Part shown: in pieces, positions 5,925 to 63,103 of the stretch | Numbering within the stretch: the first letter of the stretch is position 1 | Layout of the letters: each line of letters opens with the position of its first letter | Assembly: GCA_016182105.1 (NCBI GenBank) | Contig: JACOXZ010000011.1 | Span: 1,218 to 65,217, forward strand | DNA from: Candidatus Liptonbacteria bacterium | Lineage (GTDB): Bacteria; Patescibacteriota; Minisyncoccia; UBA6257; 2-01-FULL-56-20 | Length of the DNA: 64,000 nucleotides | Direction of reading: 5' to 3' | The notes under the pieces: model-generated | What the model saw: the letters and a program-made list of their open reading frames with translations, nothing else | What the model was told of the DNA's origin: nothing | Databases searched by the model: none | Position numbers and translations under genes: made by a program

Positions 5925-6025
5925 TCCCGTTAGAAGCCGCGATCGCGTTGCTAAAACTCCAAATATCTATCAATGTACAGTCATTACAATGAACTCGCCT
6001 AGATCGCGATCTGCTTCTAACGGGA
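5925..6025. mobile_element. Family A inverted-repeat miniature element
   Basis: TCCCGTTAGAAGC...GCTTCTAACGGGA flanked by TGA on both sides; last A is the A of the next ATG. Confidence 0.85.
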
Positions 6026-7497
6026 TGAAGAACAAAAAAGGACAACTTTCGCTTCAGGTTTTGATCTTCGGAGCGGTCTCGATAATCGTTATCAGCGGCT
6101 TTGCGCTTTGGGCTTCATCGTTTTTGAAATTCTCTCTTAGGGATTTCAATAAGACATTAGCTTTCTCAATTTCGGAGGCTGGCATTGAGTATTACCGCTG
6201 GCACCTGGCGCACGCGCCACAGGACTTTCAGGACGGCACTGGCGGCCCCGGCCCTTATGTCCACAACTATTACGACAAAAACGGAATTGTCCTCGGCCAG
6301 TTCAGTTTGGAAATCACCCCGCCAGCCACGGGCTCAACGATCGTAAAAATCAAGAGCACTGGCCAGCTTGCGGCCGACTCGAGTATTCAGAAAATAATTC
6401 AGGTTTCGATGGGCATCCCGTCTTTTGCCAAATACGCGGTCGCGGCCAATGACATCATTCGTTTTGGAGACGGCACAATAGTTTACGGACCGATTCATTC
6501 AAACGGCGGCATCCGGTTCGACGGCTACGCTTATAATTTGATAACCAGCGCCGTAGCCGACTATGACGACCCGGATCACGGCGGCGGCAATGAATTCGGA
6601 GTCCATACTCATCGCAATGAAGGAGGCCAAAGCGGAGTGGATAACAGCTACCGACCCAAAGAAGCGCCGCCGCCGCCAGCTCCCGACCGGCCGGATGTTT
6701 TCGGCGCTGGCCGTGAGTTTCCGGTGCCGGCCGTTGATTTCGTTGGCATTACCCAAGATTTGAGCCAAATCAAAGCCGATGCTCAAACAAACGGTTTTTA
6801 TAGGGCGAGCTCAACGGCTTACGGCTATGAAGTGATTCTTAAAACCGATGACACATTTGACCTTTACCGGGTCAATTCTTTAGTGTCTTCGCCTTCTTCA
6901 AATTGCACTAAATCGCAAGATCAAGCCAATAATCAAGGCGGCTGGGGAACCTGGACTATTAATTCCAAAACCTTATTGGGTAATTATGTTTTTCCGGCCA
7001 ATGGTTTGATATTTTTGGAAGACGATGTTTGGGTGAGAGGACAGGTGGACGGCGGCCGTTTGACCATCGCTTCAGCTCGGTTTCCGGATAATCCCTCAAC
7101 AAGAAGCAGCATTACTTTAAACGACAATCTTTTATATACCGATTACAACGGTCTTGATGCCATCGCTTTAATGGCGCAGAAAAATATCAATGTCGGCTGG
7201 CAGAGCCAAGATATCATCAGAATTGATGGGGCTTTGGTCGCCCAAAACGGCTGGGTGGGAAGATATTATTACAATAGTTTCTGTTCGCCGTACGATTTAA
7301 GAGACACCATTACCACTTACGGGTCGCTCGTCTCAAGCCAGCGCTACGGTTTTGCTTACACTACCGGTGTTCAAACTGTTTCCGGCTATCCGACGAGAAA
7401 CCTAATTTACGATTCCAATTTATTATACGGCCCGCCGCCGAGTTTCCCCTTGACCAGCGATCAGTATACACAAATATCCTGGGACGAAGTAAAATAG
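6025..7497 (+). CDS. PilX-like minor pilin/tip protein
   Basis: KKG-QLSLQVLIF, AFSISEAGIEYYRWHL, GPIHSNGGIRFDG; start reassigned to the ATG at the element end. Confidence 0.75.
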   Translation: MKNKKGQLSLQVLIFGAVSIIVISGFALWASSFLKFSLRDFNKTLAFSISEAGIEYYRWHLAHAPQDFQDGTGGPGPYVHNYYDKNGIVLGQFSLEITPPATGSTIVKIKSTGQLAADSSIQKIIQVSMGIPSFAKYAVAANDIIRFGDGTIVYGPIHSNGGIRFDGYAYNLITSAVADYDDPDHGGGNEFGVHTHRNEGGQSGVDNSYRPKEAPPPPAPDRPDVFGAGREFPVPAVDFVGITQDLSQIKADAQTNGFYRASSTAYGYEVILKTDDTFDLYRVNSLVSSPSSNCTKSQDQANNQGGWGTWTINSKTLLGNYVFPANGLIFLEDDVWVRGQVDGGRLTIASARFPDNPSTRSSITLNDNLLYTDYNGLDAIALMAQKNINVGWQSQDIIRIDGALVAQNGWVGRYYYNSFCSPYDLRDTITTYGSLVSSQRYGFAYTTGVQTVSGYPTRNLIYDSNLLYGPPPSFPLTSDQYTQISWDEVK

Positions 7498-7508
7498 TTT
7501 AAATTCAA

Positions 7509-7955
7509 ATGAGAAAAGGACTTACGTTAATCGAAGTTTTGATCACCATCGTTCTCGTCGCCATTTTAGGCAGCTTTGTCATCGTCTCCTTGAATCCGGT
7601 GGGCCAGCTAGCTTCGGCCAGGAACAACCAGCGGCTCTCAAATTTAAACACCATTTTAAATTCCATTAGTCAAAACGCGGCTGACAGCAAAGGCATTTTT
7701 ACCTGTTTAGGGGGGCCCATCCCCACCTCGACTAAAAGGATGGCGATTGGTGCGGGCAATTATGATATAGCTTCTTGCCTTATTCCGATTTATGCTTCGG
7801 TTTTGCCTTTTGATCCCAAAGACCCTTTAGCGCATTTCACGAGCCAAACCGATTATGACACCGGCTACACAATTATAAGAAACGCCTCAAGCGGGGCCCT
7901 CACAGTAAGCGCGCCTTCGGCTGAGTCCGGCAAGGTTATCTCGGTCAGCCGCTAA
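7509..7955 (+). CDS. Type IV pilin
   Basis: KG-LTLIEVLITIVLVAIL...LNPVGQLASARNNQR; paralog of 60084-60557. Confidence 0.88.
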   Translation: MRKGLTLIEVLITIVLVAILGSFVIVSLNPVGQLASARNNQRLSNLNTILNSISQNAADSKGIFTCLGGPIPTSTKRMAIGAGNYDIASCLIPIYASVLPFDPKDPLAHFTSQTDYDTGYTIIRNASSGALTVSAPSAESGKVISVSR

Positions 7956-9067
7956 GGCTTTTCGGTTTTCAAGTTTTCAATTAAAGCGATTTCCAGGGGT
8001 ACCATCTGAAAAGGGCTATAGCGCATTTCGCTGTAGGCCCGAATTAGATCTTTAGTGAGTCTCAAGAGGCGGTCAAGATCTACGGCCTCGCTCAGTTTTT
8101 TAAGCTGGACTATCTCCTCTTTGGTGAGTTCTGATTGAAAAACTTCTTCTAAGGCAGGATTCACCTTGAGCGACATAATTTTACGGGAATAATGGATCAG
8201 GTCTTTCGCTAGCTGGACTAAATTGTGGCCTTCCTCATTCAGTTTCGCGAGATAATCAAGGCTGCTTTTTAAATCACGGGCAATAATTAGGCTCGCAAGT
8301 CCGCTTACCTTTCTGAAACCCACCCGACCCGTGAGGAGCTCCGCGGTTTTAAGGTCAACCTTGTTCTTCAGTGAGGCGAGCTGATCAAGGAGCGATTCCG
8401 CGTCGCGGAGGGAGCCATCGCCCGAGGCCGCCACGAGTTCCAAGGCGGCTTCGTCAATCTCGATTTTTTCGGCTTTGGCAATTGCCTTGAGTTTCTCGAT
8501 AATCTTAGTTTTAGGGAGTTTTTTGAATAAAAATCTTTGGGTTCTTGAGGTGATGGTCGGAGGCATTTTTTCATACTCGGTCGTCGCGAGGATCAAGACA
8601 GCATGTTTCGGAGGCTCCTCTAGGGTCTTTAAGAGGGCGTTAAAAGCCGGGCCGGTTAACATATGAGCCTCGTCGATAATATAAACCTTAAAATCGCTTC
8701 CGGCAGGCGAGGCGTGGATGCTTTCCTTTAAGTTCCTGATTTCGTCAATGCCGCGGTTAGAGGCCGCGTCAATCTCGATCACATCAAAAGAAGTGCCCGC
8801 GTTGATTTCACTGCAAGAACGGCACTCGTTGCATGGCTCGCCTTGTTCTTGGAATTTCGGGTCTTTGGCCCGGAGTTCACAGTTCAAAAGTTTGGCAATG
8901 AGCCTTGCGGTCGTGGTTTTGCCGGTCCCTCGGGGTCCATAGAAAAGATAAGCGTGGCCGATCCGATTTTGACGAGCCGCGTTTTTTAAAATCTCGACAT
9001 TCGTCTCCTGACCGAGGAGGTCTCCTAGTTTCTGCGGACGATATTTGCGGTAGAGAGCCAGAGCCAT
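7952..9067 (-). CDS. dnaX: DNA polymerase III subunit gamma/tau
   Basis: ALYRKYRP, GPRGTGKTT, EIDAASNRG, IIDEAHML, LLKTLEEPP. Confidence 0.95.
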   Translation of the reverse strand: MALALYRKYRPQKLGDLLGQETNVEILKNAARQNRIGHAYLFYGPRGTGKTTTARLIAKLLNCELRAKDPKFQEQGEPCNECRSCSEINAGTSFDVIEIDAASNRGIDEIRNLKESIHASPAGSDFKVYIIDEAHMLTGPAFNALLKTLEEPPKHAVLILATTEYEKMPPTITSRTQRFLFKKLPKTKIIEKLKAIAKAEKIEIDEAALELVAASGDGSLRDAESLLDQLASLKNKVDLKTAELLTGRVGFRKVSGLASLIIARDLKSSLDYLAKLNEEGHNLVQLAKDLIHYSRKIMSLKVNPALEEVFQSELTKEEIVQLKKLSEAVDLDRLLRLTKDLIRAYSEMRYSPFQMVPLEIALIENLKTEKP

Positions 9068-9128
9068 CAGCTGCATTATAAGGAATTTATCCTTCCGTGG
9101 CCAGCGGCTATATCAAATTTTCGACCTA

Positions 9129-9158
9129 TTGACAAAATAGCTAGTTATAGTATATAAT
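9129..9158 (+). promoter_or_regulatory. Sigma70-type promoter
   Basis: TTGACA-18 bp-TATAAT upstream of the 9316 gene. Confidence 0.75.
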
Positions 9159-9315
9159 TAATCTGTTCTTTGATAATTCATATTCTAGTTTTTCAATCGC
9201 ATGAGGCGAGCGTTTAGCGAGTTAGATGAATAGCTCTTTAAGCACTCGCCTTATCACGAGGCGCGTCTCTCTCCGGAGGGAGTCCGGTAAGTTCACAACG
9301 AAAAGGAGAACGACG

Positions 9316-10191
9316 ATGACGACACAGTCGATCACGTCCGTCACAGACGGTCAGAAAAAGCAGTACCTGCGGTTCGTCGAGGACGCCGCCGACAAGGCGC
9401 TCGTGGAGGCCGTTCTCGACAAGGACGGTCTCCAGCGAGTCATCGAGAACGGGGACGACCTGCAGGCGGCCATCGTGGCCAAGCTCAAGGAGCTCTCGGT
9501 CACGAACGAGTACGCTGACGAGGAGGTCGGATCGAACTACGGTTACCTCTCGGGTTATAAGCCCAAGGGTATCGCCGAGCAGATCAAGACCCTCCGCAAG
9601 CTGTTCCCGTCGATCGGTACCGCTGACGAGCAGATCGCCAGCAAGCCGCTTCCCGCCAGTGCCGAGGGATGGTTCGCCATTCCGAGGTACGAGCTGGTCG
9701 CGGCGAGCTACAACGACGCGGTTCTCGCGGTGCTCGAGCTGACCAAGAAGGATCGCAATGGCAAGTTCTACAACTGGTGCGAGGGCCACCTCGGCCCGCA
9801 GTACCTGCACCAGACGGAGCGAGCCGTGCGTTCTCTGAAGAAGATCGGCGAAGAGCAGAAGGGTCACGACATCTTGGTCGTTGCGGCGCAGTTTGGTCTC
9901 CGTCACCGGGGCCGTTCCGTCCGTCGGGCTCGCTCCACTATGAACTCCTCGGAGTTCGGACTCGGCGCGTTCGCGGTCGGGGTCATACTGCTGACCCATC
10001 CCGAGCGTCTGAAGCACTACGATGACCTCTGGATCGACTGCGCAGGAGATGAGTACTCTCCTGACGCCGATGGCCGGTTCGACGAGGCCCCGCTCTTCGA
10101 CTTCGACGACGGCGAGGTGGAGTTCTTCACCCACTGGGTGGGCAATGCCCGCGAGTTCTATGGCTCTGCGTCGGGCTTTCTCCCGCAGTAG
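9316..10191 (+). CDS. Hypothetical protein with atypical codon usage; possible C-type-lectin-fold DGR target
   Basis: Strong RBS AAGGAG before ATG 9316; third positions almost all G/C; own promoter and terminator. Confidence 0.75.
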   Translation: MTTQSITSVTDGQKKQYLRFVEDAADKALVEAVLDKDGLQRVIENGDDLQAAIVAKLKELSVTNEYADEEVGSNYGYLSGYKPKGIAEQIKTLRKLFPSIGTADEQIASKPLPASAEGWFAIPRYELVAASYNDAVLAVLELTKKDRNGKFYNWCEGHLGPQYLHQTERAVRSLKKIGEEQKGHDILVVAAQFGLRHRGRSVRRARSTMNSSEFGLGAFAVGVILLTHPERLKHYDDLWIDCAGDEYSPDADGRFDEAPLFDFDDGEVEFFTHWVGNAREFYGSASGFLPQ

Positions 10192-10264
10192 TCGCTCCTC
10201 GAAACCTCGAACGCTTGGGTCTTTCGATCGTTTATCGCTTGATCCCTTGCGTTCGCTACAACTG

Positions 10265-10310
10265 GGGGTTATCCACACGGCACACGTGGATAACCCCTTT
10301 TTCTTTTTTT
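10265..10310 (+). terminator. Intrinsic terminator
   Basis: GGGGTTATCCAC...GTGGATAACCCC stem followed by a long T tract. Confidence 0.8.
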
Positions 10311-10335
10311 AATTTTTGATTTTAAGAATTTTCAT

Positions 10336-10475
10336 ATACAGCAAATACAATTTCCGCGCGGCTATGAGTCCGAGCGGGCATGGTCTCCGACCGCGATCGG
10401 AGGAGCGCAGGACTCATCGCCAGCGAAGCCGCACGCTGGGCGGCTGAGCGGTAGCGGAAATTATATTTGCTATAT
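10336..10475. repeat. Multi-stem structured element, copy 1
   Basis: About 20 bp terminal stem with nested hairpins; homologous to 11882-12150 with compensatory changes. Confidence 0.75.
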
Positions 10476-10514
10476 TTAAGCAGATTTCGCATAATTTTAA
10501 ATATCTTTTATGAA

Positions 10515-10629
10515 TCCCGTTAGAAGCCGCGATCGCGTTGCAAATAAATTAAATATCAACCAAATGCGTAATCGTTACAATAAAATAAACCTGCAGACTT
10601 GCGCAAATCGCGATCTGCTTCTAACGGGA
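10515..10629. mobile_element. Family A inverted-repeat miniature element
   Basis: TCCCGTTAGAAGC...GCTTCTAACGGGA flanked by TGAA direct repeats within an ATGAA start. Confidence 0.88.
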
Positions 10630-11870
10630 TGAAATTTCTTTTGATTTTAGGGTCGATTTTAGTGGCGGGCGCGGGCCTCTTTTTTATATTCGGAACTTCC
10701 AAAAATTTAATCATCGAACCCAAGGAAAATCCGCAAGGTGATCTTAACCTGACGCTTCTCCGTGTTCCGGAGCCGCCGCTTCCGACCTCAACCCCGCCTT
10801 CACCGCCCACGGCCGTCGATATCACAAACCAGCCGCCGCTTCAAGACCCGCCCCGGGTAGTCAAGGGAATATATGCAACGAGCTGGTCAGCTGGGTCAGA
10901 AAATAAAATTAAATATTTACTTGACCTTATAGATAAAACCGAACTTAACGCTATCGTCATTGATATAAAAGATTATTCCGGCTACGTGGCCTACAGAACC
11001 GGCATTCCCGAAGTTAGAGCCGCAGGCGCCGAAGACCAGATTCGCATCGCAAAACCAAACGCCCTGCTCAAACGTCTTCACGACAAAAATATCTATGTGA
11101 TCGGCAGGATCTCGGTTTTCCAGGACCCGATCTTAGCCAAAGCCCATCCCGAGTGGGCACTCGTTTCTTCAAGCACTGGCAAGCTCTGGGAAGATCGGAA
11201 AGGGCTCCTCTGGATGGATCCGGCCGCAGAACCAGTCTGGGATTATAATTTGAAGATTGCTAGAGACGCCTTGACGCGGGGTTTTGACGAGATTAACTTC
11301 GACTATATTCGTTTTGCTTCTGACGGCGACCTTAAAAATATTAAATATCCGGTTTGGGACGAGAAATCTTTAAAAAGCACAGTGATTAAGAACTTCTTTT
11401 CCTATTTGCGGAAAAATCTTCCCCAAGCCAAGATCTCCGCTGATCTTTTTGGTCTTGCGACCGTGAATCAAGAGGGCTTAGGCATCGGTCAGATTATAGA
11501 AGATGCTTACGAGTATTTTGATTATGTTTCGCCTATGGTTTATCCTTCACATTATGCTCCGGGATTCAATAACTACAAAAATCCCGCCGAGCACCCTTAT
11601 GAAGTGATTCGTTATTCACTTGATGAGGCTCTTAGACGTTTAGAAAACTATTCAAGCTCCACAAATCTTGAGGTTGGTTTAAAATCCAAACTGCGGCCGT
11701 GGCTCCAGGATTTTAACCTCGGCGCGACTTATGGCCCGGAAATGGTGAGGCGTGAGATTCAAGCCGTGGAAGATTCTTTGAATAGCGCCTCGAGTTCCAA
11801 CGCTTTCGCCGGCTGGCTTCTTTGGGATCCAGCGAATGTCTATACGGCAGCGGCCCTTCAAAACCAATGA
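10629..11870 (+). CDS. Putative glycoside hydrolase (DUF4015-like TIM barrel), membrane anchored
   Basis: TELNAIVIDIKD, GFDEINFDYIRF, SPMVYPSHY, LRPWLQDF. Confidence 0.8.
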   Translation: MKFLLILGSILVAGAGLFFIFGTSKNLIIEPKENPQGDLNLTLLRVPEPPLPTSTPPSPPTAVDITNQPPLQDPPRVVKGIYATSWSAGSENKIKYLLDLIDKTELNAIVIDIKDYSGYVAYRTGIPEVRAAGAEDQIRIAKPNALLKRLHDKNIYVIGRISVFQDPILAKAHPEWALVSSSTGKLWEDRKGLLWMDPAAEPVWDYNLKIARDALTRGFDEINFDYIRFASDGDLKNIKYPVWDEKSLKSTVIKNFFSYLRKNLPQAKISADLFGLATVNQEGLGIGQIIEDAYEYFDYVSPMVYPSHYAPGFNNYKNPAEHPYEVIRYSLDEALRRLENYSSSTNLEVGLKSKLRPWLQDFNLGATYGPEMVRREIQAVEDSLNSASSSNAFAGWLLWDPANVYTAAALQNQ

Positions 11871-11881
11871 TAATGATAAAG

Positions 11882-12150
11882 AAAGCAAAGCAATTCTTTT
11901 TTTCCGCGGCTATTCGGCCGAAGCGGGCATGGCGCCCTGACTTTTGGCTTTCGGGAACCGGCGTCGCCTCTGCTCCAGCGGCAGAGTCGCGCCTGCATCT
12001 CGGCACTAAAATCCGCCTAAGGCGGAACCAAGCTTTTAGTGCCTCCGATAGCTTCCCGCAAACCAAAAGTCAGGGCGAGCGAGGCCGAATCGCCAACGAA
12101 AGTCCACGCTGGGGACTTGAGTGGTAGGAAAAAGGGAATTGCTTTGCTTT
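11882..12150. repeat. Multi-stem structured element, copy 2 (expanded)
   Basis: AAAGCAAAGCAATTC / GAATTGCTTTGCTTT termini; inner CGCCCTGACTTTTGG / CCAAAAGTCAGGGCG stem; ends at the scpA ATG. Confidence 0.78.
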
Positions 12151-12876: not shown

Positions 12877-12877
12877 T

Positions 12878-12969
12878 GCAAATCTACAAAATCTATGCCA
12901 AGTATGCGAATTGCGAATCCGGAGTTTATTAGCAATTTGTAGATTGGCATTATATTTGCAAATTGGCAT
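12878..12969. repeat. Degenerate short-repeat array with inverted second half
   Basis: GCAAAT/ACAAAAT/GCGAAT units followed by ATTTGT/ATTGGC/ATTTGC units between scpA and scpB. Confidence 0.55.
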
Positions 12970-12972
12970 AAC

Positions 12973-13593
12973 ATGGAAAATGTAGAAGAAAATTTAGCGA
13001 GTTTGGAAGCCCTTCTTTTTATTCAAGGCGAACCGATTGCAAAAAAAAGAATTGGAAAGATTTTGAATCTTCCGCTTGAAGATCTCGAGAAAGTCTTAGG
13101 CGAACTAGAGAAGCGTCTTCACGAGGAGAGCCGCGGACTCTCTTTGGTACTGGACGCGGAAAAAGTCCAGCTTGTTACCAAGTCCAAATTCAGAAATCTT
13201 TTGGAGAGTTTTGCCAAAGAGGAGCTTAGCGAAGAGCTTACGCCGGCTAGCGTTGAAGCTCTCTCAATTATTTCTTATTTAGGACCGATCTCAAGAAGCC
13301 AGCTCGATTTTATTCGAGGTGTGAATTCTACCTTTATTCTAAGAAATCTTTTAATTAGGGGGCTCGTCGAGCGCACACCCCACCCTAAAAGTCCGAATAC
13401 CTATCTCTACAGCCCTAGTTTTCAGCTTCTGCGGCACTTGGGGTTAAAAAATAAAGAAGAACTCCCGGAATACGCAAAGTACCAGGAGCTTTTGAAGAAT
13501 TTCACCCCGTTACACCCAGAAAGCATGGGCTATAAAGATAAGTCGGGTCACGCAGGGGAGGGTGTAACGGGGTTTGGTAGCGATGGTGAGTAA
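12973..13593 (+). CDS. scpB: Segregation and condensation protein B
   Basis: LEALLF, ELTPASVEALSIISY, IRGVNS. Confidence 0.92.
   Translation: MENVEENLASLEALLFIQGEPIAKKRIGKILNLPLEDLEKVLGELEKRLHEESRGLSLVLDAEKVQLVTKSKFRNLLESFAKEELSEELTPASVEALSIISYLGPISRSQLDFIRGVNSTFILRNLLIRGLVERTPHPKSPNTYLYSPSFQLLRHLGLKNKEELPEYAKYQELLKNFTPLHPESMGYKDKSGHAGEGVTGFGSDGE
13504..13573. mobile_element. Inverted-repeat element inside the scpB 3' end
   Basis: Perfect 14 bp TIR ACCCCGTTACACCC / GGGTGTAACGGGGT. Confidence 0.75.
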
Positions 13594-15566: not shown

Positions 15567-15641
15567 GCATTTAAAATTCTATGAGTTTTTCGTTAAGCTT
15601 ACGTTTTGCTAGACTTTGGTTTTCTTGGTATTCTCTGGTTA

Positions 15642-16886: not shown

Positions 16887-16888
16887 TC

Positions 16889-19054: not shown

Positions 19055-20933
19055 AGCCAAAAATTTTACCGATTTCGAGGAGTCGTTAAATGGCGGCTCA
19101 CGCGAGGAAGTCATAGAGGTGCCCTTGAGCAGCCAGCCGCTTTTTTATACGGGCTTATTAATTTTTCTTTTTGCCGCGCTTGCCGTAGGCCGCGTTCTTT
19201 TCTTGGGTGTAGTCTCCGGCGAAATCTATAAAGCCAGGGCCGAGGCCAATTCTAGCGAGCTCGAGCGGCTTCAAGCGCCGAGGGGTCTCGTCTTCGCGAG
19301 AGGCGGAGAAGTTTTGGCAGAAAACCAGCCGGTTTTCCTGGCCGTCTTGAAGACCAGCGAATTTCTAAAAGACGAGTCTATCCAAGAAAAAACGCTTGCT
19401 TCAATCAAGGAGATTATGGGAATTGATAGAGAACTAGTCTGGAGTCTGATCAAAGAACGAGACCAAGAAAGAATAGGCGACCCAATTGTTCTTAGCGCCG
19501 ACCTAAGCCAAACTGAGCTAATTCAGCTTAAAAGCCTCAATTCCTTGTCCCTGGTCGTAGAGAGCGGTTTCAAGAGGAATTATCCGGACGGCCCAATTTT
19601 TTCTTCCATAATTGGCTATACCGGACTCCCTACCGCCCTAGATCTTAGAGAGAATGCCGAACTTACCGGCGTGGATTTTGTTGGCAAATCCGGCCTAGAG
19701 GCTTTTTACGATAAAGATCTCCGCGGAAAAAACGGATTTTTAGCGTATCTCCGCGATGCCAAAGGTGAAATCTTCGAAGAAAAAAAGGAGAGGCCAGTCG
19801 AGGCAGGAGCGGCTCTCAATTTAACAATTGACGCTGAATTTCAGCGCTATTTTTACCACAGGATGCAAGAGGGACTCACCTCATTAGGGAGAAACTCCGG
19901 CGTTGGTCTGGCGTTAAATCCGAGAAACGGCGAGGTTTTGGCCCTGATTAATTTACCGAGCTACGACCCCAATATTTTCTTGGCTCCAGAGAAAAACGAA
20001 GAGAGGTTGAAACTCTTGAATTCACCGGAGACGCCCCTGTTCAATCGGGCTATAAGCGGCACCTACAGCCCAGGTTCCACAATTAAGCCGCTCGTGGCTC
20101 TCGCGGCTTTGAGCGAAGGCGTGATCAACACCGAAAAACAAATTTATTCCCCAGGCTATCTTGAAATTCCGAATCCTTATGACCCCCAGAAACCCACTCT
20201 TTTCCTCGATTGGCGGCCCCAGGGCTGGGTGAATTTAGAGCGGGCCATTGCTCAGTCCTCGAACGTTTATTTCTACACTGTAGGCGGTGGCTTCGGCGAT
20301 ATTAAGGGGCTGGGGATCAAACGTTTAAACGACTGGTGGCAAAAATTTAATTTAGGAAAGCTCACTGGCATTGATTTACCTTGGGAGGCCAAGGGACTTT
20401 TGCCCACAGTCGAGGAAAAAGAAAAAAGAACCGGCACGCCCTGGCTTTTGGGCGATACTTATAACGTCTCAATTGGCCAGGGAGATCTCTTGCTTACTCC
20501 TCTTCAGATTTTAAACTACGTTGCCGCAATTGGAAACGGCGGGAAAATCTACCGGCCGTTTCTTGTCTCGAATTTCAAACACTCCGAAGTTGCTAGCGAC
20601 CTTTCTAATCTTCAAACTCAAATTTCTGAAGTGGAGAAAGGCATGAAGGCCGCAGTGAATTTTCCCTTAGGCACCGCCTACCTCCTTCACGATCTTCAGG
20701 TCTCGGTCGCTGCAAAAACCGGAACAGCCCAGATTTTGTCGAACACCCAGGCCAACGCCTTCTTTGTCGGTTTTATGCCGGCCGAGGATCCTGAAATTGT
20801 TATCCTGATTTTAGTTGAACGTTCGCGCGAAGGCAGTTTAAACACCGTGCCTATCGCTAAAGACGTGCTTAACTGGTACTACTTAAACCGGATCCCTCAC
20901 CCTTCAGAGATTTTATCTACGTCATCAAAATGA
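19038..20933 (+). CDS. mrdA: Penicillin-binding protein 2
   Basis: PGSTIKP, SSN and KTGTAQ motifs; last 13 or so codons and the stop come from a family C element. Confidence 0.9.
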   Translation: MPRKYKAKNFTDFEESLNGGSREEVIEVPLSSQPLFYTGLLIFLFAALAVGRVLFLGVVSGEIYKARAEANSSELERLQAPRGLVFARGGEVLAENQPVFLAVLKTSEFLKDESIQEKTLASIKEIMGIDRELVWSLIKERDQERIGDPIVLSADLSQTELIQLKSLNSLSLVVESGFKRNYPDGPIFSSIIGYTGLPTALDLRENAELTGVDFVGKSGLEAFYDKDLRGKNGFLAYLRDAKGEIFEEKKERPVEAGAALNLTIDAEFQRYFYHRMQEGLTSLGRNSGVGLALNPRNGEVLALINLPSYDPNIFLAPEKNEERLKLLNSPETPLFNRAISGTYSPGSTIKPLVALAALSEGVINTEKQIYSPGYLEIPNPYDPQKPTLFLDWRPQGWVNLERAIAQSSNVYFYTVGGGFGDIKGLGIKRLNDWWQKFNLGKLTGIDLPWEAKGLLPTVEEKEKRTGTPWLLGDTYNVSIGQGDLLLTPLQILNYVAAIGNGGKIYRPFLVSNFKHSEVASDLSNLQTQISEVEKGMKAAVNFPLGTAYLLHDLQVSVAAKTGTAQILSNTQANAFFVGFMPAEDPEIVILILVERSREGSLNTVPIAKDVLNWYYLNRIPHPSEILSTSSK

Positions 20934-21023
20934 GTACTACAGACAAGACGTTTCCTTTCAAAGTCGCTCGGCAAAAGAGATCACACCATGAAAAATCGTG
21001 CATGATCTCTGAATGGTGAGGGA
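20893..21023. mobile_element. Family C inverted-repeat miniature element
   Basis: TCCCTCACCCTTCAGAGAT...ATCTCTGAATGGTGAGGGA; homologous to the 34724 and 62974 copies; last A begins the next ATG. Confidence 0.85.
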
Positions 21024-21364
21024 TGATTCAAAAATTTATTCGATTTAAAATCACAAGCGCTGCTTTCTTCGCGAGTTTGACACTGGTTTTAAGTGGATGG
21101 CTTTGGGCCTATTTTTCGTTAAGAAATCTCCCGCCACCCTATATTCTTAGGTTTGTGAGCAATCTTGGTGTGACCCAATTAGGCGATCTTCAAGACATTG
21201 CCGCCGCCGGAGCCGTGGCCATGATAAGCGTGCTTTTGAATTTTATACTGGCTTTTGAGCTTGAGACCAAAGCAAAGTTTTTAGCGAAACTCCTGACTTT
21301 TTCAACCCTGACTTTTGCCGCCTTGATTTTCATCGGCTTCGCCGCTATTATTAGCGTCAACTAG
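21023..21364 (+). CDS. Small membrane protein
   Basis: Three hydrophobic segments, 113 aa. Confidence 0.7.
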   Translation: MIQKFIRFKITSAAFFASLTLVLSGWLWAYFSLRNLPPPYILRFVSNLGVTQLGDLQDIAAAGAVAMISVLLNFILAFELETKAKFLAKLLTFSTLTFAALIFIGFAAIISVN

Positions 21365-21438
21365 TGGATAGTGTGCTAGTGACTAGTGACTAGCGCACTA
21401 GCCACCAACGTACTAGTCACTAATGCACTAGTCACTAA
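21361..21438. repeat. Short-repeat array (CTAGTGA units, then inverted CACTAGT/CACTAA units)
   Basis: ctagtgg..ctagtga ctagtga ctagcg cactagc..tactagt cactaatg cactagt cactaa. Confidence 0.65.
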
Positions 21439-21445
21439 CTCTCAT

Positions 21446-21757
21446 ATGTCCACATTTGCAATTATCGAAACCGGCGGCAAGCAATACAAAGTTTCTGCCG
21501 GGGACAAAATCAAGATTGAAAAAATCTCTAGGAAAGTGGGCGAGAGTTTTGATTTCGATAAAGTGCTCCTCAAGGCCGACGGAGCGAGCGTGGAGGTAGG
21601 CGCGCCGTACCTCACGGGCGTGAAGGTGGAGGCGACGGTTTTGCGCCAGGCGCGCGACAAGAAAAAAATCGTCTTTAGGTACCACCCAAAAACTCGTTAC
21701 CGAAAGAAGAAAGGACATAGACAGTTCTTTACCGAAGTACAGATTGGGAAGATTTGA
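21446..21757 (+). CDS. rplU: 50S ribosomal protein L21
   Basis: FAIIETGGKQYKV...KKGHRQ. Confidence 0.96.
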   Translation: MSTFAIIETGGKQYKVSAGDKIKIEKISRKVGESFDFDKVLLKADGASVEVGAPYLTGVKVEATVLRQARDKKKIVFRYHPKTRYRKKKGHRQFFTEVQIGKI

Positions 21758-21760
21758 AAG

Positions 21761-21834
21761 CCCCGCCTTCGTCCGTAAGGACTTCGGCGGGGTGCTCGAT
21801 TTCGTGATCTCGCTTCGCTCGAACGAAATCGGCA
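21761..21834. repeat. GC hairpin plus 45 bp stem-loop repeat shared with 51515-51559
   Basis: CCCCGCC..GGCGGGG then GGGTGCTCGATTTCGTGATCTCGCTTCGCTCGAACGAAATCGGCA. Confidence 0.7.
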
Positions 21835-34723: not shown

Positions 34724-34855
34724 CCCCCCCACTCTTCAGAGATTTTCTCTACGTCATCAAAATGAGTACTATAGACAAAATGTTTCATTTCAAGGCCGTT
34801 CGGCAGATGAGATTATGCTACGAAAAATCGTGCATGATCTCTGAAGAGTGAGGGA
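34724..34855. mobile_element. Family C inverted-repeat miniature element
   Basis: CACTCTTCAGAGAT...ATCTCTGAAGAGTG; flanked by TGA on both sides. Confidence 0.88.
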
Positions 34856-35262
34856 TGAGGCCGAAACCTTTAATTTTATTAGTTGACGATGAGGCTGATT
34901 TTCGAGAGATTATCAGCGCGAAGCTCACCGCAGCGGGTTTTGACGTTGCTCTAGCTAAAAATCAGTCCGAAGCCGTCGCTAAAGCCGAGCAACTCTTGCC
35001 TGACCTGATTTTAATGGATATCTATTTGCCGCCCGGGCCAACCGGGACTGATACGGCCTTGAACATCAGGCAAAATCCCAAAACCAAAGATTTAAAAATC
35101 GCATTCCTCACCAATCTTAAAGAACCCTGGCCTGCAATCGGCGGGGATAGAGAAAAAGTTACCCAAGAGCTTGGCATGGAAGGGTTTATAGAAAAGACAG
35201 AAGATTTGAATATGCTCGTCAAAAAAATCCAGGAAATTTTAGAGAAGGCTCCCTCGTCTTGA
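34855..35262 (+). CDS. Single-domain response regulator (tandem paralog)
   Basis: LILLVDDEADF, PDLILMD. Confidence 0.88.
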   Translation: MRPKPLILLVDDEADFREIISAKLTAAGFDVALAKNQSEAVAKAEQLLPDLILMDIYLPPGPTGTDTALNIRQNPKTKDLKIAFLTNLKEPWPAIGGDREKVTQELGMEGFIEKTEDLNMLVKKIQEILEKAPSS

Positions 35263-35405
35263 CCCCGCACCTTAGAAAGATTTCGTTTTCTAGAACGCCT
35301 GTGGATAAATCCTTATTTTTATTACACAAAATCTGATTTGCGAATGACCTACCCTTATTATCAAGAAAAACGGCTAGGCGTTCACATCTTTCTAAGGTGA
35401 CGGGG
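35263..35405. mobile_element. Family B inverted-repeat miniature element
   Basis: CCCCGCACCTTAGAAAGAT...ATCTTTCTAAGGTGACGGGG flanked by TTGA direct repeats. Confidence 0.88.
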
Positions 35406-35440
35406 TTGATTTTTTATCGGCTGGCGCTATAATCTTTCGC

Positions 35441-40363: not shown

Positions 40364-40401
40364 TACTATGATTATACCGCAATTGCGGTATAATCGTAGT
40401 A
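40364..40401. promoter_or_regulatory. 38 bp palindrome carrying outward-facing TATAAT boxes
   Basis: TACTATGATTATACCGCAATTGCGGTATAATCGTAGTA; second copy at 62914. Confidence 0.65.
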
Positions 40402-40448
40402 AGAAGGGCGGTTAGACAAATTGAAGAGGGTCTTATACACTTTTACCT

Positions 40449-51399: not shown

Positions 51400-51412
51400 T
51401 AAACAAAACCTT

Positions 51413-51519
51413 CACCCAGCACATAAATTTATGATGACGTTCACAAACAACAAATCAATAACTGCCACACAAAACAGCTTAATACTGAAGGTCACCTGGT
51501 TAAATTTATGTGCTGGGTG
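51413..51519. mobile_element. Inverted-repeat element with perfect 19 bp TIR
   Basis: CACCCAGCACATAAATTTA / TAAATTTATGTGCTGGGTG. Confidence 0.75.
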
Positions 51520-52125: not shown

Positions 52126-52149
52126 TCTCCACCCTTCAAAGATATCAAG

Positions 52150-53211: not shown

Positions 53212-53225
53212 GCAACTGAGCGTTG

Positions 53226-53341
53226 TCCCGTTAGAAGCCGCGATCGCTTTGGGTAATGCATAGTTGTTTGCCGTATGGATAGTCATTGTTATACATCGCT
53301 ATAGTCCACATATCACTGATCGCGATCTGTTTCTAACGGGA
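53226..53341. mobile_element. Family A element nested in a family B remnant
   Basis: TCCCGTTAGAAGC...TTCTAACGGGA flanked by CGTTG repeats; followed by ATCTTTCTAAGGTGCGGGG. Confidence 0.85.
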
Positions 53342-53383
53342 CGTTGCTATCTTTCTAAGGTGCGGGGTAAAATAGAGATATAA

Positions 53384-55446: not shown

Positions 55447-55449
55447 GCG

Positions 55450-56520: not shown

Positions 56521-56521
56521 G

Positions 56522-56950
56522 ATGCGCGGCTTTATGTTACTAGAGGTCCTGCTTTCAGTAGTTTTGATTGCGGTCTTGGCCGTGATCACTATCCCTATTT
56601 ATCAGTCGTTTCAGGTAAAAAACGATCTCGAGCTTGCGGTAAATACCGTGTCGCAGACTTTGCGGCGGGCCCAAATTTTTGCGGAGTCAGTCGCGAGCGA
56701 TACCGCTTGGGGCGTTTTTGTGGGTTCAAGTAGCATCACCCTTTTTCGGGGCCCAAGTTTTTCAAGCCGGGTTACCTCTTCAGATGAAGTTTTTGATTTG
56801 CCATCCACCATTTCTCCGGGAGGGCTTCGGGAGTTTATTTTTTTGAAATTCTCCGGTGAACCGCAAGCTACTGGAACACTAACCCTAACTTCTTCAGCTA
56901 ATGAGACAAAGTCCGTTAGCGTTAATAGTAAGGGAGTCGTTACTTATTAG
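56522..56950 (+). CDS. Minor pilin (FimT/GspH-like)
   Basis: RG-FMLLEVLL. Confidence 0.8.
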   Translation: MRGFMLLEVLLSVVLIAVLAVITIPIYQSFQVKNDLELAVNTVSQTLRRAQIFAESVASDTAWGVFVGSSSITLFRGPSFSSRVTSSDEVFDLPSTISPGGLREFIFLKFSGEPQATGTLTLTSSANETKSVSVNSKGVVTY

Positions 56951-56952
56951 CG

Positions 56953-58497: not shown

Positions 58498-58502
58498 CAT
58501 TT

Positions 58503-59018
58503 ATGCGTAGAAAGGATACTAGAAACAGGAGAGGTTTTACTCTGGTCGAGCTTATTCTTTATGTAAGCGTGTCCGCATTAGTGGCGCTTGCGGCAGCCGG
58601 GCTCATAGTTATCATTATTCAAGCTCGCGTTAAAAGCCAAACCGTTGCCGAAGTTGAGCAGGTTGGGAGCCATGTGCTGAATCTTATCACCCAAACCGCG
58701 AGAAACTCTCTTCGAATTAATTCACCCCTTCCCGGCGGCTCGAGCAGTGTTTTGTCCCTGGCTAATCAATCCAGTACCAAAAACCCTACTATTTTTGATG
58801 TTCAAAGCAGCACGATTCGAATTACAGAGGGCGCCTATCAGCCAGTGCCGCTTACCTCTTCCCGGCTTTTAGCTTCAAGTCTTTTGTTTCAAAATCTATC
58901 CCGAACCAACACCTCCGGCACCATAAGAATTCAATTTACTTTAACTCACCAAAATCCCGGCAGTCGAAACGAATATGATTACGTAAAAAATTTTTATGGT
59001 TCAGCAACAGTTAGATAG
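58503..59018 (+). CDS. Minor pilin
   Basis: RRG-FTLVELILY. Confidence 0.85.
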   Translation: MRRKDTRNRRGFTLVELILYVSVSALVALAAAGLIVIIIQARVKSQTVAEVEQVGSHVLNLITQTARNSLRINSPLPGGSSSVLSLANQSSTKNPTIFDVQSSTIRITEGAYQPVPLTSSRLLASSLLFQNLSRTNTSGTIRIQFTLTHQNPGSRNEYDYVKNFYGSATVR

Positions 59019-59087
59019 CTTTTAGCTGATAGCTTTTAGAAGTAAAATAACTAAAAGCTAAAAGCTGTAACCTAAAAGCTAGTAATT

Positions 59088-59456
59088 ATGTATATCGAAT
59101 CATTTAAACAATTGACAGTTTGGCAAAAATCGATCCAATTAGTGAAAGAAATTTATAGGGTGACAGACAAATTTCCTGCCTCGGAGATGTACGGCTTAGT
59201 AAGTCAGATGAGAAGAGCGGCAATATCAATTCCTTCAAATATTGCCGAGGGCAAAAAAAGGAAAACGAAGAAAGATTTTCTGCAATTTCTAAGAATAGCC
59301 GATGGTTCCGCCGCTGAGCTAGAGACCCAAATTATTATTGCAAAAGAATTATTTCCAAAATTAGACTTTTCTAAGACAGTATCATTACTAGAGGAGATCC
59401 AAAAAATGTTAATAACCATAATCAAAAAGTTTGAAGGAAATGGTCATGCTGACTAG
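59088..59456 (+). CDS. Four helix bundle protein (23S rRNA IVS protein-like family)
   Basis: SFKQLTVWQKS, FPASEMYGLVSQMRRAAISIPSNIAEG, FLRIADGSAAELETQ. Confidence 0.92.
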   Translation: MYIESFKQLTVWQKSIQLVKEIYRVTDKFPASEMYGLVSQMRRAAISIPSNIAEGKKRKTKKDFLQFLRIADGSAAELETQIIIAKELFPKLDFSKTVSLLEEIQKMLITIIKKFEGNGHAD

Positions 59457-59874
59457 CGGCCTAAAAGCTAAAAGCTATAAGCTAAAAGCTAAGGGTGGTT
59501 ACATCACGCTTTTAATGGTTATTATTGTGGGCGCGATAGGCGTCGCAACCGGCGTCTCTCTTCTTCTTTTAGGCGTCGGTTCATCTCGAAGCAGCTTATC
59601 GTTTGAGAAGTCGAATCAAGCCAAGGCCTTGTCGAATGCCTGCGCGGAGGCAGCACTTGATCAAATAAGAAATTCATCTGCCTTCTCCGGAAGCGCTGGA
59701 TTAACTTTCGGCCGTGGCAGCTGCAGCTATCAGGTTTTAAACTTAGGCGGCCAGAGTCGTTTAATTAACGCTTCAGGCACGGTGGATGAGGTCGTAAGAA
59801 AAATCAAAATAACCCTAAATCAAATCACGCCTAAGATTAACCTTACTTCCTGGCAAGAAGTTTCTGATTTTTAA
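59440..59874 (+). CDS. PilX-like minor pilin
   Basis: KGG-YITLLMVII, QAKALSNACAEAAL, SWQEV; start uncertain. Confidence 0.75.
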   Translation: MVMLTSGLKAKSYKLKAKGGYITLLMVIIVGAIGVATGVSLLLLGVGSSRSSLSFEKSNQAKALSNACAEAALDQIRNSSAFSGSAGLTFGRGSCSYQVLNLGGQSRLINASGTVDEVVRKIKITLNQITPKINLTSWQEVSDF

Positions 59875-59922
59875 TCCACAGAGAAAAATCAGTGAGTTAT
59901 GATATAATTTTTATAAGCCAGA

Positions 59923-60055
59923 CCCCCACACTAATCAGGACTTTGAGTTATGTTCTATGTGTATGTGTTGCGTAGCATGAAAGACAAGAAATTATATAAT
60001 ATAGGTTATACGAATAATCTTAACCGCAGGTTGATAGAACATATTAGTGTGGGGG
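59923..60055. mobile_element. Inverted-repeat element carrying a GIY-YIG 5' fragment
   Basis: Perfect 13 bp TIR CCCCCACACTAAT / ATTAGTGTGGGGG; 59950 onward reads MFYVYVLRSMKDKKLYNIGYTNNLNRRLIEH. Confidence 0.85.
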
Positions 60056-60083
60056 AAAGGTCGCGAGAATTTCAGATTCTAAA

Positions 60084-60557
60084 ATGATAAGTAATTTTTC
60101 TTCGAGACGCGGTTTTACGCTTTTGGAAATCCTGCTTGTAGTGGCTGCCCTGGGAATCCTGGCTGGCATTGTCATTTTGGCGATCAATCCCGGAAAACAG
60201 CTTGGCGACACAAGAAATGCTGCGAGGAAGGTTGACGTGAACACCATTATTAACGGCGTTTATCAGTATTCTCTTGACAATAACGGCAACCTGCCGTCCG
60301 GGCTTTCGACTTCAACTTGTTCGACAGCCACCAATAATATCTGTAAGACTTCAGTTGCAACCTCGAGCTGCACAGGCTTTGTTGACCTTTCGGTTTTGAC
60401 TCAAAACGAGAAATATCTTGTTTCTATTCCTATTGATCCCTCGATTTCGAGTGCCTCAACCGGCACTGGTTATTTCGTAAGAAAGACGGTGAACGGCCGA
60501 GTGGAGGTTTGCGCGCCAAACGCTGAACAAGGAGCCACTGTGAGCGTAATCCGTTGA
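60084..60557 (+). CDS. Type IV pilin (probable major pilin)
   Basis: RRG-FTLLEILLVVAALGILAGIVILAINP. Confidence 0.9.
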   Translation: MISNFSSRRGFTLLEILLVVAALGILAGIVILAINPGKQLGDTRNAARKVDVNTIINGVYQYSLDNNGNLPSGLSTSTCSTATNNICKTSVATSSCTGFVDLSVLTQNEKYLVSIPIDPSISSASTGTGYFVRKTVNGRVEVCAPNAEQGATVSVIR

Positions 60558-60563
60558 GAGGAG

Positions 60564-60680
60564 TCCCGTTAGAAGCAGATCGCGATCTGGGTAAGTCTGC
60601 AGTTCAATTTTATTCACTGTAATGACTATACACTGATAGATGTTGGATTTTTAGCAACGCGATCGCGGCTTCTAACGGGA
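60564..60680. mobile_element. Family A element, opposite orientation
   Basis: Reverse complement aligns with 5925-6025; last A begins the kinase ATG. Confidence 0.85.
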
Positions 60681-62203
60681 TGAAACTACCAACTAAAATC
60701 GCCCTTATTATTTTCTCCGGCGCGACCATCGGCGCTGTCGCGGCCGGTTTTTTGGTGTTTTCTTTCACCCGCTCGGCGCTTCAAGAAACAATCGGCATCC
60801 AGAATATCATCGTTCCTTCTCCGGACGGTTCTTCAACGATTGTTACCTCGCCCGCGAGAGACACGGCTTTGAATTTGGTTTTTCTTTTGATACCCATTTT
60901 CTTCCTAGCGACGAGTGTGGTGATTTTATTCGTTGTTGTCTTCGTGGTGAGGCCGATTACGGTTCTCACGAGAACCGCGAAGGCTATCGCCGGCGGGGAC
61001 ACCAGTTTACGGGCGAAAGTTACCTCCACCGACGAAGTGGGCGAGCTTACCAAGAGCTTTAACGCCATGGCCGAGCGACTGATTAATTTAAGCGAAGAGA
61101 CCAAGGCAATACTAGAGACCCTGCCCGAGCCGCTTTTCGTTTTGACTGAAGACGGGGTCGTTACTTCCGTGAACCGCGCTGCCTCGGAGATGGTCGGCCA
61201 CAGCGAGAAAGAGATGAGGGGACGGCTTTTAAGGGATGTCTTGGCTGGCATCGCGCTTCTCGAGGAAGCCAAAGATGTGGCCTTAAAAATTGAGGAAGGA
61301 GTAGCCGCGGCCAAGCCTATAAAATTCGAGGAAGTCTCTATAAAAAATAAAGTTTTCGAAGTTTTTATAACTCCAGTCAAGGATTATCGGGGTAGAACCT
61401 CTCACGGCGCTGTTATTTTCCATGATATAACCCACATTAAAGAAGTTGATCGTTTGAAAACCGAATTCGTCTCAGTGGCTTCGCACCAGCTCCGAACACC
61501 GCTTACTGCCATTAATTGGTATATAGAAATGCTTTTCTCCGGAGATGCCGGGAGAATCGCGGGAGCCCAAAAGGATTATCTCCAAGAGATTTATGACGCG
61601 AGTAAACGAATGGTCAGGTTAATCAACGACCTTTTAAATGTTTCGCGACTTGATAGCGGCCGCCTCAAGATCGAACCTACGCCGACCCAGCTTGAAGATT
61701 TTATCGATAATGTTTTATCAGAGCTTAGGCCAGTCGCTAAAGAAAAAAATTGCGAGTTGCTTTTCAAAAAACCAAAAACCAGGCTTCCTAAAGTGGACAT
61801 TGATCAAAGTTTGCTCCGGCAGGTGATTCAAAACCTAGTCACGAATTCGATCCGCTATTCAGAGCCGAAGTTGTGTGACACTGCTTTAACTTTGGAAAAA
61901 AGGGATGGCAAGGATTATTTGATTACAATCAAAGACAGTGGCATTGGGATTCCGAGGGAGGTTCAGGCAAGGATTTTTGAGAAGTTTTTCCGGGCTGACA
62001 ATGCCATAAGAGTAGTGGCTGAAGGAACCGGCTTAGGCCTTTATATCGCTAAAATGGTTATCGAAACTTCCGGAGGCAAGATTTGGTTCGAGTCCGAGCC
62101 GGAAAAAGGCCTGCCTGCCGGTAGGCATGGCACGACTTTTTATTTCACAATTCCTCTTACCGGAATGAAAAAGAAGGGGGGAGAGTTAGGGCTTGCGGGG
62201 TAG
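60680..62203 (+). CDS. Sensor histidine kinase (HAMP-PAS-HisKA-HATPase)
   Basis: DEVGELTKSFNAM, ASHQLRTPL, NLVTNSIRY, DSGIGI, GTGLGL. Confidence 0.93.
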   Translation: MKLPTKIALIIFSGATIGAVAAGFLVFSFTRSALQETIGIQNIIVPSPDGSSTIVTSPARDTALNLVFLLIPIFFLATSVVILFVVVFVVRPITVLTRTAKAIAGGDTSLRAKVTSTDEVGELTKSFNAMAERLINLSEETKAILETLPEPLFVLTEDGVVTSVNRAASEMVGHSEKEMRGRLLRDVLAGIALLEEAKDVALKIEEGVAAAKPIKFEEVSIKNKVFEVFITPVKDYRGRTSHGAVIFHDITHIKEVDRLKTEFVSVASHQLRTPLTAINWYIEMLFSGDAGRIAGAQKDYLQEIYDASKRMVRLINDLLNVSRLDSGRLKIEPTPTQLEDFIDNVLSELRPVAKEKNCELLFKKPKTRLPKVDIDQSLLRQVIQNLVTNSIRYSEPKLCDTALTLEKRDGKDYLITIKDSGIGIPREVQARIFEKFFRADNAIRVVAEGTGLGLYIAKMVIETSGGKIWFESEPEKGLPAGRHGTTFYFTIPLTGMKKKGGELGLAG

Positions 62204-62313
62204 CTATTTGCGAGTATCAAAAATTTTCTCCTTGATTTTTGTGCCTTAGGCATAAAATACTAAATTGCAGTGTTATTGTAATCCCGCAAAATTTACCGCG
62301 CAAATAATAAGTG

Positions 62314-62384
62314 CTGCGGGGGAAGGAGTCGGACCTTCATACCGGGATTCAAAGTCCCGTGTCCTACCGTTAGACGACCCCGCA
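62314..62384 (-). tRNA. tRNA-Gln(TTG)
   Basis: TGCGGGG/CCCCGCA acceptor, CGGGA-CT-TTG-AA-TCCCG; T loop reads TCCGACT. Confidence 0.92.
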
Positions 62385-62409
62385 AGTTAACTGTTATAAT
62401 ATCCCAAAC

Positions 62410-62907
62410 ATGAAAAAAGGCAAAAAATCTTTTCTCGTCATTTTCATTTTGGTCGTGGTGGCAGTTGGCCTTCTGGGCTTCAATAATATTTTCAGGCCAG
62501 CTGGTTCTTCGAATAGTTCCGACGAAGACCCGCTCTCGCGCTGCATCCAGCATTTGAGAGGGGGCATGCATATCCATCCGCACCTGACAATTGTGATTGA
62601 TGGCGAGCGGCAAACAATTTCAGGGAATGTCGGAATGTCAATCATGTGTATGCGTCCGGTGCACACTCACGATGTCACCGGGGAGATCCATATCGAACAT
62701 CCTTCTTTCCAAGATTTTACCCTCGGTGATTTTTTCAGCGTTTGGCAAAAACCGTTTTCGAGAGGCCAAATTTTAGACTATTCGCCTAACCTTGAGTATG
62801 AAATTGTGATGACCGTGGACGGCAAGCCCAGCGACGAATTTGAAAACCTGATTTTCAAAGACAAGCAGCAAATCGTGATAGAATACAAAAAAGTCGTAGG
62901 TAAATGA
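62410..62907 (+). CDS. Exported His-rich hypothetical protein
   Basis: N-terminal TM; MHIHPHL, VHTHDVTGEIHIE, FTLGDFF. Confidence 0.75.
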   Translation: MKKGKKSFLVIFILVVVAVGLLGFNNIFRPAGSSNSSDEDPLSRCIQHLRGGMHIHPHLTIVIDGERQTISGNVGMSIMCMRPVHTHDVTGEIHIEHPSFQDFTLGDFFSVWQKPFSRGQILDYSPNLEYEIVMTVDGKPSDEFENLIFKDKQQIVIEYKKVVGK

Positions 62908-62913
62908 AAAGAG

Positions 62914-62953
62914 TTACTATTATTATACCACAATTGCGGTATAATCGTAGTAA
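62914..62953. promoter_or_regulatory. Second copy of the TATAAT-bearing palindrome
   Basis: TTACTATTATTATACCACAATTGCGGTATAATCGTAGTAA. Confidence 0.65.
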
Positions 62954-62973
62954 GGTTTAATAAAAGAAAATGA

Positions 62974-63103
62974 TCCCCCACCTTTCGGAGATTTCTCCCC
63001 GTCATCAAAACGAAGTTTGGACACAAAGCATTTGTTTTCAAGGTCGCCTTAGACTTGAGACCGTGCTTCAGAAAGAAGCGTATGATCTCTGAAAGGTGAG
63101 GGA
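62974..63103. mobile_element. Family C inverted-repeat miniature element
   Basis: TCCCCCACCTTTCGGAGAT...ATCTCTGAAAGGTGAGGGA flanked by TGA repeats inside the sod start ATGA. Confidence 0.85.

Follow-up and report, generated by a model that had tools for sequence, protein, structure and literature searches.

MITEs (miniature inverted-repeat transposable elements) such as Correia/CREE, ERIC and RUP are short and gene-less, have inverted ends and target duplications, lie at gene borders and form co-transcribed hairpins; they are attributed to DDE transposases with TA-type targets. REP/REPIN-RAYT and IS200/IS605 systems have folded single-stranded ends, a subterminal hairpin and a small trans-acting enzyme, and the HUH chemistry of IS200/IS605 leaves no regular duplication. 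A 64-kb window of a Candidatus Liptonbacteria genome (64,000 nucleotides, the whole stretch analyzed; assembly GCA_016182105.1, contig JACOXZ010000011.1, positions 1,218 to 65,217 of the forward strand) holds miniature repeats that share these structural traits with the MITEs, and folded ends and a subterminal hairpin with REP/REPIN-RAYT and IS200/IS605. They are probably non-autonomous forms of ~275-290-bp mobile elements whose sole gene encodes a GIY-YIG nuclease of ~85 amino acids (aa), a small enzyme that would likewise act in trans. Unlike the REP/REPIN-RAYT and IS200/IS605 systems, the enzyme is of the GIY-YIG type and no Y1_Tnp domain (RAYT) was found in the genome; small IS200-type elements are more than twice as large. 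We know of no MITE that rebuilds start codons or has a GIY-YIG parent.

The closest system described so far is Ssn, which cuts folded single-stranded DNA and whose NTS-ssnA-NTS arrangement resembles an insertion sequence in its authors' view (Chenal et al. 2025, PMC11893778). As in Ssn/NTS-SRM, a small single-domain GIY-YIG gene lies here between hairpin repeats that have many gene-less copies. Unlike the arrangement set out in that paper's main text, the ends are terminal inverted repeats with target duplications, overlap the 3' end of the gene and sit on start codons. The published degenerate SRM motif occurs in 0/72 of the full-length elements collected below and nowhere in the genome, and the main text of the Ssn paper mentions no target site, start codon, Patescibacteria or candidate phyla radiation (CPR). 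The element may work like Ssn, of whose class it would be a putative member at most. No published description of it was found in the literature searched, which took in few subscription journals and no supplements. The element is real, mobile and outside the insertion-sequence classes known to us. The miniatures as such are MITEs, with inverted repeats, duplications and dispersed copies whose orthologous sites are mostly empty; new are the GIY-YIG gene as the parent's sole cargo and the insertion at start codons, while the enzyme's role and the targeting are what we infer.

The genome behind the window comprises 588 kb on 28 contigs and is 94% complete. The original prediction, made from the letters of the window, had described seven repeats of 101-132 bp in two families, A and C, and both the coordinates and the comparison of copies bear it out. 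Family A lies at 5925..6025 (+, 101 bp, with a 16-nt internal deletion relative to the other copies), 10515..10629 (+, 115 bp, 94-97% identical to six copies on other contigs), 53226..53341 (+, 116 bp) and 60564..60680 (-, 117 bp, its interior inverted relative to the other family-A copies). Family C lies at 20893..21023 (+, 131 bp), 34724..34855 (+, 132 bp, with C rather than T as first base) and 62974..63103 (+, 130 bp). As predicted, in six of the seven the terminal A doubles as the first base of the ATG of a long open reading frame (ORF; 113-507 aa): a 490-aa gene at 5925, where the pilin-like gene upstream ends on the left TGA, DUF4015 (413 aa) at 10515, a 113-aa ORF at 20893, a response regulator (135 aa) at 34724, where the element separates its ATG from the TGA of another response regulator, a histidine kinase (507 aa) at 60564 and superoxide dismutase (212 aa) at 62974. 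The four claimed duplications are present (TGA at 5925, 34724 and 62974, TGAA at 10515). The two copies described as lacking a clean one do lack it; none remains at 60564, and at 20893 it is absent because ~24 nt of the left flank were lost with it. At 10510 the old ATG reads, as noted originally, through the element for 40 codons (10510..10632, +) to a TGA that overlaps the new ATG. The sole window copy without an adjoining ATG, at 53226, sits within a sister repeat's right end and has a perfect 5-bp duplication, CGTTG; two paralogous sister repeats contain CGTTG once. The end pattern does not arise by chance, with 39 matches in the genome and 0 for a reversed control. An Rfam search of the window returned two tRNAs only and no match for the elements, and no sigma-70 promoter was found within the 10515 copy, with one weak site upstream at chance level.

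Scanning the whole genome for both end types yielded 60 pairings, from which we dropped 4 hybrids arising from two nested composites and 5 that were G-ended or very short. The 51 T-ended elements of ≥90 bp that were kept include 2 nested in other copies, leaving 49 host insertions of the form TCCC...GGGA: 38 with CCCGTTAGA ends (18 of them family A) and 11 of family C, with terminal inverted repeats of 13-20 bp. TG directly follows the element in 48/49, the terminal A begins a gene-opening ATG (ORF ≥67 codons) in 47/49, and a perfect 3-5-bp duplication, chiefly TGAA or TGAG, flanks 38/49; tabulating the flanks was a check proposed with the original prediction. The repeats are thus selfish insertions with target duplications whose terminal A rebuilds the ATG, as had been proposed; insertion falls after the A of A^TGA(R) and duplicates TGA(R). 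The proposed target of start and stop codons alike stands for starts only: a stop codon alone was the site in 1/49, and stops were otherwise mostly affected where they overlap a start. The genes with an element-supplied start we take from their N-termini to be rplX, rpsM, rplW, rplM, rplI, rpsD, rpmC, rpmA, ssb, ftsZ, polA, hisS and fmt, among others; rebuilding of the start codon allows the elements to lie ahead of essential genes. The end pattern was found in 15/40 relatives; among the matches listed (36 copies from six other genomes), 31/36 end on an ATG opening ≥60 codons and 25/36 have a duplicated target.

Empty orthologous sites, another proposed check, were found at 5925, 20893 and the DUF4015 start. 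For the first two we used contigs from four runs of one study, which contain the window itself and related organisms ~85% alike, i.e., relatives rather than exact ancestral alleles. Among the matches listed, one or two letters replace the element at the 5925 junction (stop, one base, ATG), and the junction lacks the element in 7/7 genomes with an orthologue. At 20893, a relative's contig has 21 different letters in its place, which finish the penicillin-binding protein and close on an ATGA stop/start overlap; the element thus entered such an overlap, with ~24 nt lost on its left. Among 80 DUF4015 loci, 66 have a scorable start and 64 of these are empty; the other two bear a 277-bp element of full length and a C-like one of 130 bp, respectively. 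Two subtypes on the same start codon are independent insertions at one site. The best match in a JGI metagenome search with the DUF4015 protein had 60% identity, with no near-strain allele. In relatives, elements also sit on dnaA-like and ssb starts (L206, L210); the ssb start is occupied in the source genome too, by a different subtype.

Longer copies enclosing a gene, which the original prediction had suggested looking for while naming no mobilizing gene, do exist. A 277-bp element on another contig (G000:C25:3720-3996; L011:1221-1497) occupies the fmt start with TGAA duplicated, and its only gene, an intact one, encodes an 85-aa protein with a GIY-YIG domain (PF01541, E 9e-15) and no transposase domain. 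The nuclease ORF continues across the right repeat and has the duplicated TGA, which overlaps the host ATG, as its stop. Miniatures and long copies share a 10-bp core and, for the 277-bp element, the AGAT subtype of end; for family C they share a core as well, whereas no long copy with the exact family-A ends was found in 351 genomes. A scan of GTDB genomes with the nuclease gave at least 397 relatives among at least 604 candidates, mostly from Patescibacteria records; in the best 80 of the at least 397, the same inverted repeats bound 72/80 loci. Among the 72 distinct full-length elements (the source genome's copy included), 49/72 have an ATG or GTG start at their end (a contig end cuts one of these), 10 of the 23 off starts have an ATG 3-9 nt downstream, and duplications of ≥3 bp flank 52/72. 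In 49 of the 61 that could be parsed, the three bases directly after the element form the nuclease stop. Family-C-type ends surround an 85-87-aa GIY-YIG gene in 4 elements from 3/351 genomes, each ending on an ATG. IMG/VR held no match to the exact end pattern, and annotated phages and plasmids (INPHARED, PLSDB) gave no blastn match.

The nuclease ORF is intact in 70/72 distinct elements, a share to be read with a protein-based search that favors intact copies. With a median dN/dS of 0.15 (824 unsaturated of 2415 pairs), the gene is under purifying selection. Residues Y5, Y15, G17, R25, H29 and E61 are invariant across elements; we take their roles to be catalytic from general knowledge of the GIY-YIG fold. 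The AlphaFold model (pLDDT 94) has UPF0213, HIGLE and Slx1 as its nearest folds, with solved-structure matches to 1zg2 (E 3.5e-5) and to the HIGLE catalytic domain and Slx1 (E 0.02-0.25, probability 0.96-1.0), and the protein presumably lies nearer an SLX1-like group than CDD cd10448, the Ssn group. Its fold suggests that it could cut branched DNA; unlike it, Slx1, HIGLE and UPF0213 are host repair enzymes or uncharacterized proteins outside mobile elements. A group I intron or homing endonuclease was considered and rejected: there is no Rfam ribozyme, the sites are dozens and unrelated, and TIGR01453 scores far below its cut-off.

Within the gene of the 72 full-length elements lies a second inverted repeat, with arms ~67-70 nt past the nuclease ATG and just inside the right end. 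Its median score is 13.3, vs. 6.3 in codon-shuffled controls. Over 15 pairs, 92% of cells are paired and 105 double changes occur; shuffled sequences pair in 83.2 ± 0.5% of cells (84.4 at most) and slid partners in 23-54%. The sequences are related, so these figures do not amount to a probability; several pairs alternate among three or four pair types despite the constrained gene. The full-length single strand folds as a three-way junction (z -3.5), and most miniatures have a short hairpin at the inner-stem position. The unlooped length (total minus the looped-out part) is 103 nt in the parent, 100-102 in eight AGAT-type miniatures, 101 in a 219-bp composite that has a nested element instead of the hairpin, and 97-103 in 12 relatives' copies, while one subfamily without a hairpin totals 100-106 bp. 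For family A the value of ~101 nt was measured by hand in all but one copy, a script having chosen an alternative pairing for most. The constant ~100-nt path may be a mechanistic ruler or may simply result from deletions across the inner stem during descent. Such simple descent is at odds with the miniature interiors, which are no longer gene-like. The composite occurs as two near-identical copies (G000:C20:11714-11932 and C20:33676-33862; L012, L013) in which the nested element exactly replaces the inner hairpin; because each copy stands at a start codon of its own, the composite probably moved whole.

The explanation that we favor, and regard as likely when taken whole, is that the miniatures are moved by the nuclease of the longer elements. 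That the nuclease mobilizes them in trans we regard as quite likely. For the chemistry we give roughly even chances to a route in which the nuclease would act on the folded single strand, by analogy with the cleavage of branched DNA by Slx1 and HIGLE, which are related to it in fold: it would nick the foot of the terminal stem or the three-way junction and make staggered target cuts 3-5 nt apart, and host polymerase and ligase would seal the joint. Such cutting and sealing would yield variable duplications and occasional left-side deletions. The simplest cue to starts would be that the nuclease prefers the sense (non-template) strand where translation starts expose it, with selection against coding insertions sharpening the bias. 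The host gene would then be read by re-initiation at the ATGA overlap, after an upstream open reading frame (uORF) in about a third of copies, or by loss of the old ATG. A further-reaching version, which we put forward tentatively as falling short of an even chance, makes this a new transposon class: the 85-residue GIY-YIG protein would be the transposase, recognizing its own three-way junction (terminal stem, inner stem and ~100-nt path) and steered to starts, where the target would supply stop and transcription and the ATGA overlap would hand ribosomes to the host gene.

The same element and enzyme could also work without targeting, entering any ATGA(R), with only copies at starts surviving, coding insertions being lethal and the rebuilt ATG locking the element in; we see this as possible, if somewhat doubtful. 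We set the insertions against a null built on home-made gene calls (563 genes, 84% coding), in which ~2,230 free ATGAR sites divide into 133 starts, 17 stop-only, 326 other intergenic and 1753 coding sites. The large share inside genes counts in favor of survival alone, as do the start codon of the left copy lost in 11/49 against the right TG retained in 48/49, the roughness of the gene calls and the want of an extended motif at occupied starts. Insertion at ATGAR was counted at starts in 39/39 cases (39 of 172 starts) and at 0/40-93 tolerated non-start sites, defined by gaps of ≤300 nt with 27 possible missed starts removed, which left 76 intergenic sites, including 23 sense-strand sites in co-directional gaps (Fisher p = 8e-9 vs. 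93 tolerated sites; 1e-4 vs. 40 sense sites). Sister elements with C-rich ends lie in intergenic DNA of the same genome off starts (most of 24 pairs), so that intergenic loss is no general rule. Survival also sits poorly with off-motif insertions (TAA, TGG), which cluster at or just before starts too, and with the DUF4015 and ssb starts, where the occupying subtype varies with the lineage. Selection acting on a short ATGAR target leaves part of the start bias unexplained, and we lean slightly toward a real positional cue beyond the pentamer.

Several points weigh against mobilization and targeting by the nuclease. To our knowledge GIY-YIG enzymes hydrolyze, and we know of no strand joining by them. 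Family-C parents share only the first ~12 bp with the miniatures and have no clear inner stem, and exact family-A ends on a full-length copy were found in 0 of the 351 genomes of the class (lengths 264-294 only). Compared with the 5' part of the nuclease gene, miniature interiors gave no nhmmer match and z >2 in 3/35; because they are unlike it, descent by simple deletion is visible only in the sister element at 59923. Polarity is not absolute, with the hairpin on the ATG side in 22 copies and on the opposite side in 5. That the nuclease must borrow its start from the host was considered and dropped, since the old host ATG is in frame and open with the nuclease in only 13/37 full-length elements. 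The start bias falls to p = 0.016 against the 17 stop-only sites alone, and its null rests on rough gene calls, related copies and the exclusion of the 27 possible missed starts. Occupied and free ATGA starts (35 vs. 208) differ in no extended motif or G-10 pause signature, and occupied starts are enriched in neither a Shine-Dalgarno sequence nor a G -10/-11 pause motif. A transposase may have been missed, since 94% of the genome is covered and repeats assemble badly.

This last point leads to a reading that we think unlikely, in which the nuclease is a passenger or a homing/addiction factor and a DDE or HUH transposase or host repair moves the elements. Inverted repeats with short duplications are the signature of DDE transposition, and the seven transposase families tested in an incomplete assembly leave room for it. 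None of the seven (PF01797, PF01609, PF00665, PF12762, PF02371, PF13612, PF13701) was found in the 94%-complete genome, and all are present in control genomes. The window has no classical transposase, in line with the original prediction; it does contain a GIY-YIG gene between inverted repeats of its own (787-1083, minus strand) and, within a sister element, a remnant of another (59923-60055). A passenger would hardly have its 3' end written through the right repeat with a stop taken from the target, nor would different end types each be expected to enclose a GIY-YIG variant of their own or purifying selection to extend across dispersed sites.

Insertion has a price, and the original description of it as nearly harmless was overstated. 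The 20893 copy supplies the last 13 residues and the stop of the penicillin-binding protein (ending at 20933), with ~24 nt of the gene end gone. A 14-bp stem has the new ATG at its foot; in RNA form, the stem leaves the A and U of this AUG base-paired (z -3.9). In 12/35 miniatures with the old start, that ATG reads through to the ATGA overlap, against 0.9 expected; among right-frame copies the share is 12/20 vs. 2.3 expected, across five subfamilies. The copies are related, so the effective number is smaller, and most copies are uncoupled. In relatives, 8/25 of the matches listed read through likewise. The enrichment points to a cost repaired by selection. The buried AUG and the enriched uORFs would also suit domesticated hairpins controlling translation of selected genes, a reading that we consider highly improbable, since the affected genes are functionally unrelated and differ among genomes, orthologous sites are mostly empty, and duplications, nesting and a coding parent indicate mobility, with no match in Rfam.

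Should the nuclease prove to move the element, GIY-YIG would represent a chemistry of transposition outside the insertion-sequence classes known to us, and the rebuilt ATG a route to persist in a streamlined genome, in which ~8% of called genes (47/563) start with an element-supplied A. Because the nuclease is tiny, its catalytic residues invariant and its folded substrate defined, the claim is testable in E. coli and in vitro, and an integrator directed to start codons would be useful as a tool. For annotators of Patescibacteria, these hairpins are mobile DNA and not riboswitches.

Related elements with other ends also occur in the window. The sister miniature at 59923..60055 (+, 133 bp, CCCCCACACTAAT ends) retains the first ~31 codons of a GIY-YIG gene and lies in intergenic DNA off a start; to judge from those codons, it is a visible deletion derivative of a GIY-YIG element. 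A 284-bp sister at 826..1109 (-), with different inverted ends, carries a 98-aa GIY-YIG ORF (787-1083) that extends past the element end and is 41% identical to the nuclease of the 277-bp element. It lies directly behind a tRNA 3' end, a short piece of which is repeated beyond it (around 766-786). A third end type, CCCCGTAGGAAAT, is found just before an ATG with CATG/CATA flanks (G000:C2:21273-21503 and C19:35153-35280), and its 231-bp copy contains a decayed GIY-YIG gene. A G-ended relative at 13505..13572 (+, CCCCGTTAC...GTAACGGGG) is inserted in frame near the end of scpB and is absent from a relative's contig (net 72 nt). It recalls the Rickettsia palindromic elements, hairpins tolerated in genes; unlike those, the T-ended families lie on start codons and not within reading frames.

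The remaining repeats belong to other families. CCCC-ended repeats (CACCTTAGAAAGAT subterminal) are intergenic, with ~seven copies in the genome (window 636-710, 35262-35410 and 53342-53367), and a family flanked by a conserved GCTCAATTTT tail occurs at 51415-51517 and 21787-21834; two stretches, 21364-21445 and 21686-21834, are missing from a relative's contig. Nested inverted repeats that are long and GC-rich and belong to other families lie at 11882-12150 (ending at the next gene's start) and 10336-10475. A four-helix-bundle gene (23S rRNA IVP family; 59051-59491) stands between 6-7-bp tandem repeats. A perfect 16-20-bp palindrome (TGTTTAGCGCTAAACA core) recurs at least five times in 470 bp at G000:C1:13384-13855, in an operator-like array. 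A 38-bp palindrome with TATAAT on each strand, possibly a bidirectional promoter or operator, occurs at 40364-40402, at 62914-62952 just upstream of the superoxide dismutase element, and on other contigs.

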